Source: Escherichia coli
Lineage (GTDB): Bacteria > Pseudomonadota > Gammaproteobacteria > Enterobacterales > Enterobacteriaceae
Assembly (NCBI RefSeq): GCF_044324785.1
Contig: NZ_CP172127.1
Length of the DNA: 64,000 bases
Reading direction: 5' to 3' (one strand)
The stretch's first letter is position 1; each line of letters starts with the position of its first letter. Made by a program: the position numbers. Below are positions 47,001 to 50,000 of this stretch, piece after piece.

Positions 47001-50000
47001 TAAGCCCGGTAAAGAAGCCATTCTGATGGCGTGGAATGTTGAAGAGAGAGCACGATTGTGGCTGGAAGCATGGCGTTTATCATTGTCAGGATGGCACATT
47101 TCTGTTCTTGCTGATCCCATTGAATCGCCGCGCCCGGAACTGTTCCCAACGCAAACATTGATTGTCTGGACAGGCATGGCACCAACGAGAAGGCAAAACG
47201 AACTTTTACAACACTGGGGTGAGCAAGGTTATAAAGTCATCTTTCATGCCCCCTAATTTTACCTTTATCCCGCCCCTTAGACAGAATCTTATAATCTGAA
47301 CCCACAACAGCGTTTGTACCGGAGCTGGTCCGTTGCAAAATGCTCACCGGGAGAATTCAGGTAATCCCCCTTTCACACTTTGTACATATCACAGCCAAAG
47401 GACAGACCAGATTGAAGTGGTAAAACCGATCGTGCACACTACGCAGTCTCACAACTAACAAGAGGTTATTATCCTGATGGATCAGGTTGTTGTTTTTCAA
47501 AAGATGTTTGAGCAAGTGAGAAAAGAGCAAAACTTCTCCTGGTTTTATTCAGAATTAAAACATCACCGTATTGCACATTACATTTATTACCTGGCTACGG
47601 ATAACATCAGAATTATTACTCACGATGACACGGTTTTGTTATTAAGAGGAACCAGGAACCTGTTAAAAGTTAGTACGACCAAGAACCCTGCTAAAATAAA
47701 AGAGGCCGCATTGCTTCATATTTGCGGAAAATCAACATTTCGGGAATACTGTTCAACACTGGCAGGCGCGGGCGTTTTCCGGTGGGTTACTGATGTTAAT
47801 CATAACAAACGCAGTTACTACGCCATTGATAATACGCTTTTATATATTGAAGATGTAGAAAACAATAAACCATTAATCTAGCTAAAGTTGGAAGCTTAAG
47901 AAATGCTTCATAATTCAGTAAGACATTAGCATAATGGAAATAAAAGTGCAGAGACTATCCCTATGGATGATAAATACTATCTTTTTATTGCCACCCATAA
48001 ATAATCACCAGGCCAATACTATCAAATTGATATTTGAAATGTGATCACTTGACTTTCTATACGTTATTTTATAACGGTTAACAAATTTATAAAACCAACG
48101 GGCGTGCCATACGCCCGTTTCAATACTTAACGCACATGTGTTTTGGTTTAGTCATCATCCGATTATATGTATTTTAGTCAGGAACGGGTTTAACCATTCC
48201 TATATAACTCAAAAATTGAAACCTTATTCTCAGGTCATGCTTATATTCATCATTATCATTATATTAAAAGGCCAATCATAATGTTTTGCAAATTGGCACA
48301 ACATAGCATAAAGGCTATGTTTTAATTACAGAATGTTCAGTCATTTGAATGTATAATATTTTAGCTAAACAAATCTAAAACGAAGTGAATAATTTAATGT
48401 TTTCACTAAATCTCATTTTGTTTAATCTCTATTGAGATTCCTTGCTTTAAATTTTTTTTATATAGGTAATGACATTAATTTTTAATTAATTTATTTTTTG
48501 GGGAGTAATATACACATATGCAAAATCAAGAAATGAACATCCAAATGAACTATATTAAACACCGTGGGATAAGACATAACAAATGAAGTGGATAGTAATT
48601 GATACGGTAATTCAACCTACATGCGGCATATCTTTTTCAGCCATATGGGGTGATATGAAAATGATCATCTGGTATCAATCTACTATATTTCTCCCTCCTG
48701 GAAGTATATTTACACCGGTTAAGTCTGGTATTATCCTTAAGGATAAAGAATACCCTATTACTATTTATAACATCACACCATTCAACAAGGATTTATGGAT
48801 TTTACTCAAAAGCAGTCAAGAGTGTCCTCCAGGAGAAAGCGAAATAACAAATAAATGTTTACATAATAGTTGTATTATAAAAATATGCCCATATGGACTC
48901 AAGTAATGGGCTTCATATAAATATGCTCGACATGCTATTAATAATATCCACATAAATAAAACAACGGGCGTGTTATACGCCCGTTTCAATATTTAACACA
49001 TGTAGAGATTACATGTTCTTGATGATCGCATCACCAAACTCGCTGCATTTCAGCAGCTTAGCACCTTCCATCAGACGTTCGAAGTCATAGGTTACGGTCT
49101 TCGCATTGATTGCGCCTTCCATACCTTTAACAATCAGGTCTGCAGCTTCAGTCCAGCCCATATGGCGTAACATCATCTCAGCGGAGAGAATAATAGAGCC
49201 TGGGTTTACTTTGTCCTGACCGGCATATTTCGGCGCAGTACCGTGGGTGGCTTCAAACAGGGCGCATTCGTCACCGATGTTTGCGCCAGGGGCGATACCG
49301 ATACCGCCAACCTGCGCTGCCAGGGCGTCAGAAATGTAGTCACCGTTCAGGTTCATACAGGCGATAACATCATATTCAGCCGGACGCAGCAGGATCTGTT
49401 GCAGGAATGCATCAGCAATCACGTCTTTAATGACGATCTCTTTGCCGGTGTTCGGGTTTTTAACTTTCAGCCACGGGCCGCCGTCGATCAGTTCACCGCC
49501 AAACTCTTCACGCGCCAGCTGGTAGCCCCAGTCTTTAAACGCGCCTTCGGTGAACTTCATGATGTTGCCTTTGTGCACCAGGGTCACAGAGTCACGATCG
49601 TTAGCAATTGCGTATTCGATCGCTGCACGAACCAGACGTTTGGTGCCTTCTTCCGAACACGGCTTAATACCGATACCGCAATGTTCCGGGAAGCGAATTT
49701 TCTTCACGCCCATCTCTTCACGCAGGAATTTAATCACTTTCTCGGCGTCGGCAGAGTCAGCTTTCCATTCGATACCCGCATAAATGTCTTCCGAGTTTTC
49801 ACGGAAGATAACCATATCGGTCAGTTCAGGGTGTTTAACCGGGCTTGGAGTGCCCTGATAGTAACGTACCGGACGCAGGCAGATGTAGAGATCCAGTTCC
49901 TGACGCAGGGCAACGTTCAGAGAGCGAATACCGCCACCTACTGGAGTGGTCAGCGGACCTTTAATGGCAACGCGATATTCACGAATCAGATCAAGGGTTT

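Follow-up and report, generated by a model that had tools for sequence, protein, structure and literature searches.

Direct repeats of the icd terminator bracket iraM in Escherichia coli and may record the decay of an icd-targeting element

Background

Why should a strain with no prophage at icd carry the icd terminator twice, with iraM lying between the two copies? Under Mg2+ starvation, RpoS stability is controlled by the product of iraM, itself a PhoP-controlled gene. We analyzed a window of 64 kb from Escherichia coli NZ_CP172127.1 (GCF_044324785.1), all coordinates given here being those of the whole window, and surveyed the locus in 5,426 complete E. coli genomes. A first-pass annotation had proposed that the repeat was a footprint of past integration and excision at this hotspot, or that the iraM segment had been acquired as a cassette.

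Results and Discussion

Gene order between bluR and icd

In the window, icd (49009-50259, minus strand; 416 aa by ORF call) is intact with no prophage inserted, and it is adjoined directly by iraM and then by ycgX. The rest of the interval is formed by bluR (46525-47256, gene call), ycgX (47477-47881) and ymgL (47934-48044), all on the plus strand; ymgL is a small ORF of 36 aa whose translation matches the RefSeq-annotated ymgL of strain DG351-2. The interior of K-12 e14 gave zero BLAST matches across the 64-kb window, and this, together with the gene order, confirms the earlier proposal that e14 is absent from icd in this strain. The ycgX protein carries the Pfam domain DUF1398 (E=1.2e-47) and belongs to a phage protein family (PHROG 413, E=1.5e-41). 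ycgX was not found after bluR in Citrobacter and Pseudocitrobacter, and belongs to the Escherichia-specific filler of the bluR-icd interval. In these two genera the bluFR/ycgZ module sits at other loci, so that BluR as an outgroup route cannot polarise the event. The last 168 nt of icd form a hypervariable mosaic among strains; a comparison of 15 copies gave 2-22 differences per 168 nt. There was no above-threshold Rfam match at the locus.

Two copies of a terminator module

A terminator module of 51 nt is present twice in direct orientation, as copy A (48089-48139) and copy B (48955-49004), both on the minus strand. The ungapped core comprises 43 nt with 88% identity (48092-48134 against 48958-49000) at a spacing of 866, while gapped local alignment pairs 51 nt (48089-48139) with 48 nt (48956-49003) and scores 69, compared with 19.7 +/- 2.4 and a maximum of 28 in 200 shuffles. 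The similarity does not stop at the hairpin but also covers the non-structural tail (TTTCAATAyTTAAC...CACATGT), and it exceeds shuffles by about 20 SD. The repeat first delimited at 48086..48140 and 48952..49004 is therefore real and does contain the icd terminator; its outermost bases (48086-48088 and 48952-48954) are unsupported. The left flanks of copies A and B showed no significant similarity to each other (score 14 vs 14.6 +/- 2.4).

Each copy contains a hairpin, AACGGGCGT-(5-nt loop)-ACGCCCGTT, located at 48097-48119 in copy A and at 48963-48985 in copy B, with predicted folding energies of -15.3 to -18.4 kcal/mol (-15.3/-16.4 for copy A). Both are terminator-like on the minus strand alone, where a 9-bp stem with 6 GC pairs is followed by the tails GTTTTATTTA and GGTTTTATAA; on the plus strand the tails are weaker, and no terminator was called there. 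On the basis of the predicted hairpin and U-tract, both copies are putative intrinsic (rho-independent) terminators, and the phage 21 record annotates the equivalent hairpin as a terminator. Copy B is the predicted working terminator of icd, shared with the convergent iraM. Copy A is oriented as an icd terminator, but icd, the minus-strand gene upstream of copy B, has no counterpart for copy A to terminate. The repeat ends 4-5 nt short of the icd stop codon, so in the window it includes no icd coding sequence. To the right of the window copy A, local alignment found no decayed icd 3' end past the terminator; alternative registers through a second ACATGT, which would place an icd remnant by copy A, were aligned manually and were unconvincing.

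The markers of copy A itself are fixed in 8 diverse strains. Copy B is identical or near-identical in every strain sampled, in single-copy sites, and beside the phage arms of O157 and phage 21. Between K-12 and the window there are 5 differences in copy A and 1 in copy B, and the K-12 copy A hairpin is weakened to -9.7 kcal/mol. Copy A evolves faster than copy B.

iraM and the AT-rich segment

The DNA between the copies (48140-48954) measures 815 bp and has a GC content of 29.4%, compared with 48.7% in the window as a whole and 50.4% in icd, in agreement with the AT-rich, foreign-looking segment of ~810 bp noticed initially. The AT-rich tract begins before copy A: GC is 30% already in the stretch that separates copy A from the ycgX stop, and 37% in ycgX. 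The ORFs between the copies are iraM (48583-48906, plus strand), which encodes an RssB anti-adaptor of 107 aa, two spurious ORFs (47 and 57 aa) and the mini-ORF ymgK (48281-48325, plus strand; 14 aa), the translation of which was compared with the RefSeq annotation. No tyrosine integrase is among them, and the window ORFs between the copies include no integrase or excisionase. No transposase ORF was found in or beside the segment, and no terminal inverted repeats except the hairpins themselves. The iraM upstream/regulatory region (48140-48582, plus strand; 26% GC) contains ymgK and a PhoP-box-like site (48419-48435), a pattern match with 2 mismatches that is a consensus match alone.

IraM was assigned to NCBIfam NF007393 (170.5 bits against a cutoff of 121) and to PHROG 4407 (E=4e-51), and is 93-95% identical to E. 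coli IraM clusters. Its homologues carry the precomputed database Pfam label PF11183 (PmrD-like); our own Pfam scan of IraM returned nothing at E<=0.01. Homologues with 64-66% amino acid identity are found in 46 phage records, where stx2B lies on one side and the lysis genes on the other, and in prophage remnants of E. albertii and E. ruysiae. Between the phage homologues and the chromosomal locus neither flanks nor terminators are shared, the homology being limited to the coding region. The divergent IraM alleles P0004, P0006, P0010, P0011 and P0067 were ruled out as icd-site alleles, as they sit in prophages or other islands. Judged by its relatives, iraM is phage-family cargo, and the GC content, PHROG 4407, the phage homologues and a Rac-like trkG in the large form described below mark the enclosed DNA as of phage or mobile origin. 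The proposal that the segment was acquired as a cassette thus stands as regards phage-family cargo; of a self-contained cassette mechanism there is no sign.

Distribution among E. coli genomes

The iraM segment occurs in 3,879 of the 5,426 genomes (about 71%). A precise single-copy junction lacking iraM was found in 1,037/5,426 (19%), among them Nissle, ATCC 25922 and ST131, which form one tight clade, and a 6.3-kb version in 19/5,426. Thus, an unoccupied site with exactly one repeat copy does exist (1,037/5,426); it consists of the copy A left flank, a B-type terminator and icd, and the 866-bp presence/absence allele has its breakpoints exactly at the repeat. Hryckowian et al. 2014 (PMC4045071) describe iraM as absent in CFT073-like strains and present in K-12-like ones, and our counts (3,879 iraM-positive vs 1,037 single-copy) agree with this polymorphism.

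K-12, with e14 in place, has both copies outside e14, at a spacing of 864 bp compared with 866 bp in the window. The repeat is therefore unrelated to e14 integration or excision in the window strain. Furthermore, since 19% of the genomes have one copy and no iraM, the copies are not simply two native terminators. If they were, the first-pass annotation had argued, both would be present in all E. coli regardless of e14 status; the independence from e14 held true, but the universality did not.

Every single-copy terminator sampled was B-type, and terminators with an A-type loop and a B-type tail, the chimeric signature of recurrent recombination between A and B, numbered 0 in the 5,426 genomes. 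Both observations fit one old deletion with a left-end crossover, and fit a never-occupied site equally well. In a tree rooted on the 6.3-kb haplotype, the single-copy clade is sister to the iraM-positive strains and not nested within them; its ycgX is only ~3% from theirs. MMC-J-0078, in which the flank alleles are the same as in the iraM-positive FDAARGOS_1281, represents an independent recent loss. In strain ET474, an IS1 junction at the first base of copy A reflects an IS1-associated adjacent deletion and is no evidence on the repeat. A degenerate terminator pattern run against species-representative genomes found at least 1 locus, in E. whittamii, with a phage-like arm adjoining; E. coli was expected and was not matched.

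A divergent haplotype and traces of an integrase arm

Phages that integrate at icd carry the same terminator. The phage 21 annotation runs from int through the attP subsites P1-P3 and a terminator to the ICDH-like last 53 codons, and the icd 3' end together with this terminator is found in 28 phage records. The O157 prophage and K-12 e14 have the phage 21 layout, each with its own arm repeats. According to a review (PMC6379469), the part of the icd 3' end that e14 duplicates measures 163 bp. K-12 stacks three versions: copy A, copy B with icdC, and the e14 terminator.

The 6.3-kb version (L023/L045) has the order ycgX, copy A followed by an icd 13-mer (ACATATTCTTGAT), a ymgB-like gene, iraM (a 73% allele), the Rac-like trkG, an ORF of 455 aa, an e14-type arm, copy B and icd. 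No integrase was found in it. Its repeat is longer (70 nt, 81%, E=5e-14) and includes the icd stop codon and the last ~5 codons, copy A being followed collinearly by the last ~15 nt of icd. The arm to the left of copy B scored 74 against e14. The suggestion that copy A matches phage-derived icd-3'-like sequence therefore applies to this rare divergent type and fails in the window. Copy A followed by iraM is common to the two deep haplotypes, which diverge by 45% around ymgL and by 20-29% in the iraM region. As they differ far more than their flanks, the large and short forms may be independent acquisitions. This haplotype and the phage module layout uphold a relation of the locus to integration at the icd hotspot, as first suspected.

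The copy A left flank (48050-48088, no strand assigned) resembles a degenerate e14-type integrase arm, weakly in the window and more clearly in orthologous flanks. In Seattle 1946 it scored 29 against the large-form e14-type arm (14.1 +/- 2.6 in shuffles, 0/1000 as good), while the window flank had a weak score of 21 against the e14-type arm, with 27/1000 shuffles as good (27-44/1000 for its e14-arm likeness overall). By BLAST, the K-12 flank plus copy A matched the large-form arm plus copy B over 92 nt (76%, E=2.6e-10). The window copy B left flank had no similarity to the e14 or large-form arms, its scores of 12-14 equalling the shuffle mean. The e14-arm likeness of the copy A flank could instead reflect capture of chromosomal sequence by phage.

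Origin of the repeat

We favor, with a probability of about 0.6, the reading that the two copies are successive generations of the icd terminator, that copy A was displaced by an icd-targeting element of which iraM is the surviving cargo, and that the B2-type state is an 866-bp loss. Elements that target the icd 3' end, such as e14, phage 21 and their relatives, carry a module of integrase, arm sites, terminator and icd 3' end. Upon integration the phage copy becomes the new working end of icd, while the resident terminator and the old gene end come to lie beyond the element. One such element probably brought the iraM-family cargo long ago and then decayed, leaving as remnant in the common haplotype copy A, ~815 bp of AT-rich DNA with iraM, and copy B, which would end both icd and the convergent iraM. 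Finally, the 51-nt direct repeats would permit precise loss of one 866-bp unit, giving the B2-type clade without iraM. We infer that copy A, and not copy B, is the displaced copy, and that the short form arose from one resembling the large form. The single-copy state is probably the repeat-mediated 866-bp loss: copy A precedes iraM in both deep haplotypes and the ycgX of the single-copy clade has diverged by only ~3%, which favors loss. Displacement is read largely from a rare haplotype that is 20-45% divergent, the window itself having no icd remnant, no integrase and no arm at copy B.

The opposite polarity, that the iraM module was inserted as a discrete unit into a single-copy icd terminator, either duplicating the terminator or bringing in a terminator-like end of its own, with copy A as the imported copy, copy B original and the B2-type site ancestrally empty, is a minority reading that we regard as distinctly less probable. 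The exact breakpoints of the 866-bp allele, the B-type terminators without chimeras, the sister position of the single-copy clade and the AT-rich segment with its phage-family gene would all suit it. However, neither the segment nor the DNA next to it holds a transposase, an integrase or terminal inverted repeats, a 51-nt target duplication matches no transposition mechanism, and the homology to phage iraM is limited to the coding region. In addition, the second haplotype, 20-45% divergent, also has copy A and then iraM, and its copy A carries icd codons as would a displaced gene end, whereas standard integrase logic puts the element-borne copy beside the gene body, that is, at copy B. Still less probable is an origin with no mobile element, the copies being independent native terminators (by convergence or chance) or a local tandem duplication selected to insulate iraM. 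Both copies do form stable hairpins that are followed on one strand by a U-rich tail, and copy A could end ycgX-ymgL or antisense transcripts, but the similarity extending into the non-structural tail, the U-tract of copy A on a strand with no upstream gene, the compositionally foreign and phage-related DNA in between and the icd codons within the large-form repeat all speak against it.

A recent integration and excision of e14 or phage 21 in the window strain itself is very improbable, even though icd is a known prophage hotspot and the mosaic of its last 168 nt among strains suggests past phage-mediated replacement. Site-specific excision restores a single site and leaves no duplication, the e14 crossover lies ~165 bp inside icd whereas the window repeat has no icd sequence, and the copy A markers common to 8 diverse strains imply that the duplication long predates them. 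Moreover, K-12 has both copies at the same spacing outside its integrated e14. The original phrase 'integration and excision' is better replaced by 'integration and decay'.

A broader picture can be offered tentatively, as the less likely side of the matter: the bluR-icd interval may be a layered archive of integrase insertions whose boundaries are marked by surviving displaced icd terminators, with iraM made a switchable module by the 51-nt repeats. The repeat-mediated 866-bp loss, by which the whole B2 clade would have been deprived of Mg2+/PhoP-dependent RpoS stabilisation, may recur sporadically elsewhere. In a bolder variant, the terminator-flanked unit might still be excised or re-inserted in trans by the integrases of resident icd phages.

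Implications

The presence of iraM differs between major E. coli lineages, and its indel is now defined: a unit of exactly 866 bp with terminator repeats at its borders. This indel, as a probable loss, is offered as the reason why extraintestinal B2 strains lack iraM, and the polymorphism is a simple PCR-sized marker. The published placement of iraM on e14 is corrected, the gene lying outside e14 and persisting without it. In addition, the 'empty' icd site is not pristine, as its flank resembles a worn e14-type arm, and att-site and island-calling tools should be applied with caution at this hotspot. Most likely, viruses inserting repeatedly at the end of icd, each with a fresh terminator, pushed the old terminator outward.

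Comparison with known systems

The locus is a fresh instance of a known process, with no new mechanism or kind of system. It shares with e14 and phage 21 the target and the logic, in which the element brings a terminator and icd 3' end, the resident copy is displaced outward and direct repeats surround foreign DNA; the large form, moreover, has icd codons after copy A and an e14-type arm next to copy B. Unlike these phages, the window has a repeat consisting of the 51-nt terminator and not of 163-165 bp of icd, only 815 bp of cargo is left between the copies, with no integrase, excisionase or arm sites, and the structure is found in about 71% of genomes independently of e14 presence.

Tandem or decayed islands that share one att site (TIGER/Islander; PMC10111431) likewise have related att-like sites in series at one hotspot, but here the inner members are relics without integrases, and island membership is not demonstrable by att/int criteria. 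Transposons, IS elements and MITEs differ in that their target-site duplications span 2-14 bp, as against 51 nt, and transposase and terminal inverted repeats are absent here.

Among the morons of lambdoid phages, the iraM homologue of Stx2 phages, between stx2B and nanS-p, and iraL in the potB island of CFT073 (PMC4045071) belong to the same protein family with 64-73% amino acid identity, and are comparable as AT-rich, autonomously regulated, prophage-carried genes. However, chromosomal iraM shares with the phage copies the coding region only, its flanks, promoter region and terminators being locus-specific. The same study places iraM 'on the e14 prophage', whereas the window and the K-12 annotation put it outside e14, where it persists without the prophage; the repeat-defined 866-bp breakpoints are not described there.

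Organization of the icd-iraM region

We read the DNA beside icd as a stack of icd terminators from serial integration at a known hotspot, with iraM as domesticated cargo that would lie between two layers of the stack, and with a repeat-bounded 866-bp indel that would separate lineages; a probability of about 0.6 is assigned to this reading. The plus strand carries bluF, bluR (46525-47256), ycgX (47477-47881), ymgL (47934-48044) and iraM (48583-48906), followed by an intact icd on the minus strand (49009-50259) and, in order, rluE, nudJ, mnmA, hflD, purB and phoPQ. In contrast, K-12 has the 15.2-kb e14 prophage between icd and the icdC pseudogene, and iraM just past icdC. 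No match to the K-12 e14 interior was found across the 64-kb window, which, with the intact icd, bears out the absence of e14 noted in the first-pass annotation. From rluE to phoQ identity is about 97.7% to ordinary E. coli and 92% to E. whittamii, so the window comes from a thinly sampled E. coli lineage.

A repeat search found a direct repeat with a 43-nt core of 88% identity (48092-48134 and 48958-49000, spacing 866), which gapped local alignment lengthens to 51 versus 48 nt (48089-48139 and 48956-49003). Its score of 69, against 19.7 +/- 2.4 for shuffles, confirms the earlier observation of a duplicated terminator-containing repeat around iraM and puts it far outside chance. The two copies, A (48089-48139) and B (48955-49004), each have a 9-bp GC-rich stem and a 5-nt loop, and both are terminator-like on the minus strand, the direction of icd, with tails GUUUUAUUUA and GGUUUUAUAA; neither was called as a terminator on the plus strand. 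Copy B, 4-5 nt beyond the stop codon of icd and about 50 nt beyond that of iraM, is the predicted icd terminator, common to the convergent iraM. Copy A points the same way, yet no minus-strand gene precedes it. Between the two copies lie 815 bp with 29% GC, against 49% for the window.

Several local variants were also seen. The 5-nt loop of copy B is inverted (GTATAAC instead of the usual GTGTTAT), with flanks keeping their orientation, in FDAARGOS_1281 (L032 1718-1740) and MMC-J-0078 (L006 3510-3532); a stem-mediated flip of the loop, by template switching at a quasi-palindrome, would give such a form. A third tail past the hairpin, ACCGTTTTTAACACATGCAGAAATTACATATTC, a better plus-strand U-tract, occurs at single-copy sites of MNCRE44/ST131 and GPEC172 (L037 and L038, 1659-1700). 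On the icd promoter side, some strains have an insertion between icd and rluE, a second variable spot, with an STM2901-family protein, DUF1493 and sometimes IS3 (L045 22117-24263, L006 5388-5847, L023 14050-14324). An isolated 41-nt match of 90% links window 37134-37174, near ymgI, to sequence upstream of trkG within a large island (L023 7921-7961, L018 2539-2579); a repeat element, or the start of a small gene common to both places, may account for it. Plasmid records also matched the chromosomal locus in a few cases, at 8-24 places per search.

Distribution among E. coli genomes

Among 5,426 complete E. coli genomes, the iraM segment, scored present at >=80% coverage, was found in 3,879, a precise single-copy junction in 1,037 and a 6.3-kb variant in 19; the remainder show other states, such as that of O157:H7. 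In the single-copy allele a lone B-type terminator follows directly on the left flank of copy A, with icd or icdC next. Carriers include Seattle 1946 (= ATCC 25922), Nissle and the ST131 strain MNCRE44. Presence and absence of iraM has been published, CFT073 being without the gene (PMC4045071). The same paper locates iraM on e14, a placement contradicted by the K-12 annotation and by the e14-free window.

In K-12 e14 is in place and both copies, A and B, are there at a spacing of 864 bp; the duplication is therefore independent of e14. The proposed footprint of past integration and excision is supported in part, as to integration at the icd hotspot, and fails as to e14. K-12 would also suit the idea that both copies are native terminators of all E. 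coli, but 1,037 of the 5,426 genomes have only one. Three serial terminators are present in K-12 (L004): copy A (18466-18488), copy B beside icdC (17602-17624) and a diverged e14-borne version, AACGGGAGCGTTACGCTCCCGTT, adjoining the working icd end (about 2398-2420). Together they record integrations layer upon layer.

Two further rearrangements were observed. In ET474 (L005 7251-8003) an IS1-associated deletion takes out bluF, bluR, ycgX, ymgL and part of ycgZ; its endpoint is the first base of the hairpin in copy A (CACGGG for AACGGG). Loci L021, L022 and L030 show a rare order in which bluR is fused directly to an iraM upstream region, a ymgB-like gene and a 69% IraM allele, with ydcI-ydcJ-opgD-ydcH-rimL after them, and without ycgX, terminator copies or icd; this is probably a rearranged chromosome.

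Phage modules and a probable displaced terminator

The phage 21 record is annotated with integrase, three attP arm subsites (YYTTCCCCAAAA), a terminator and the ICDH-like last 53 codons, and 28 phage records match the icd 3' end plus terminator. In O157:H7 a prophage resembling phage 21, and with its layout, adjoins icd. In e14 and in the e14-like element of WP7-S17-ESBL-04, arm repeats of the TTTTGATAA type precede a terminator variant of their own. Since such modules carry both terminator and icd 3' end, integration would install the phage terminator beside icd and displace the resident one, as is known for e14 and icdC (PMC6379469). ycgX and iraM were unmatched by megablast anywhere in the EDL933 (O157:H7) genome, so the far side of its prophage lost the whole interval. 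In EDL933 a phage-21-type integrase, three GTTTTGGGGAA arm repeats and a terminator lie against icd (L002 4572-6053). Strains and phage copies differ from one another at 2-22 positions in the final 168 nt of icd (window 49009-49176, compared with the corresponding stretch of 14 other copies), far more than elsewhere in the gene. Repeated replacement of this 3' end by phages would fit such variation, including in strains now without a prophage there.

The large variant, L023 type, has the order bluF, bluR, ycgX, copy A, ymgB-like gene, iraM, trkG (90% to Rac trkG), 455-aa ORF, e14-type arm, copy B, icd. Its IraM allele, 73% identical to that of the window, led to loci L023-L026 and the complete genome of 24A16CRGN010. 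Its direct repeat (70 nt, 81%, E=5e-14) crosses the stop codon of icd and takes in the final five codons; a 13-mer, ACATATTCTTGAT, is exact and collinear there. The 70 nt left of copy B score 74 against the e14 arm (13.5 +/- 2.3 expected). Judged by sequence, this type matches the expected look of a decayed icd-integrated element, which would leave a displaced terminator and icd stub on the far side and arm, terminator and icd on the near side. The window shares with this island the iraM upstream region (71%) and the iraM gene (80%), and is without its ymgB-like gene, trkG, 455-aa ORF, arm and icd stub. We infer that copy A is the displaced copy, because integrase logic sets the element-borne copy beside the gene body, the icd stub adjoins copy A in the L023 type, its orientation suits a gene no longer served, and it evolved faster than copy B. 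Between K-12 and the window there are 5 differences in copy A and 1 in copy B, and the copy A stem is weakened in K-12.

An older layer may lie left of copy A. With the terminators in register, this flank, also that of the single-copy site, resembles an e14-type arm (TTTTGATACGTTATTTTATAACGGTTAACA in the chromosome, TTTTGATAAAATTTTGATAACCGTTAGCA in e14; BLAST 92 nt, 76%, E=2.6e-10). The Seattle flank scores 29 (14.1 +/- 2.6 expected, 0/1000 shuffles as good) and the window flank 21 (27/1000 as good). The ycgX product falls in PHROG 413, a family of phage proteins, and in Citrobacter and Pseudocitrobacter the bluFR/ycgZ module is sited elsewhere, without ycgX or iraM. This evidence is modest and suggests that ycgX-ymgL, too, goes back to an earlier element of this kind, now decayed; in the opposite direction, phages may have captured chromosomal sequence.

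Origin and probable loss of the iraM segment

IraM clears its NCBIfam cutoff and also matches PHROG 4407. In 46 phage records there are homologues with 64-66% amino acid identity; in Stx2 phages they sit on the opposite strand, with stx2B on one side and the nanS-p/lysis region on the other. E. albertii and E. ruysiae-like strains have further homologues within remnants of prophages. The earlier suggestion that iraM was acquired as a cassette is upheld insofar as the gene is phage-family cargo (PHROG 4407, 46 phage records). Only the coding region is common to phage and chromosome. A PhoP-box-like site of direct repeats lies about 150 nt upstream of iraM (48419-48435, 2 mismatches), and another upstream of phoP (54858-54874, 1 mismatch); phoPQ is about 6 kb from iraM. 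The first site is consistent with published PhoP control of iraM.

Two deep haplotypes split from about 47,600 in ycgX onward, with 55-61% identity around ymgL, and both have copy A and then iraM. The single-copy strains form one tight clade with ycgX about 3% from that of iraM+ strains. For these reasons the single-copy state is taken as a probable loss. Against this, all sampled single-copy terminators are purely B-type, A-loop/B-tail chimeras were absent from the 5,426 genomes, and the clade is sister to iraM+ strains, not nested, in a tree rooted on the L023 haplotype; one old deletion with its crossover within the first ~38 nt would agree with all this, and an ancestral empty site would do so equally well. 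This polarity is the weakest link of the overall reading. An independent and recent loss, which also speaks for this direction, is seen in MMC-J-0078: the segment is missing there, whereas its close relative FDAARGOS_1281 is iraM+, and the two share their flank alleles exactly, along with the unusual flipped-loop copy B. An IS200C copy lies exactly at the left edge of its terminator (L006 2795-3504), and IS200 may target the hairpin edge or have mediated the deletion.

The terminator-bracketed iraM segment is no new kind of element. It is a new and well-resolved example of att duplication and prophage decay at icd, which is a known process.
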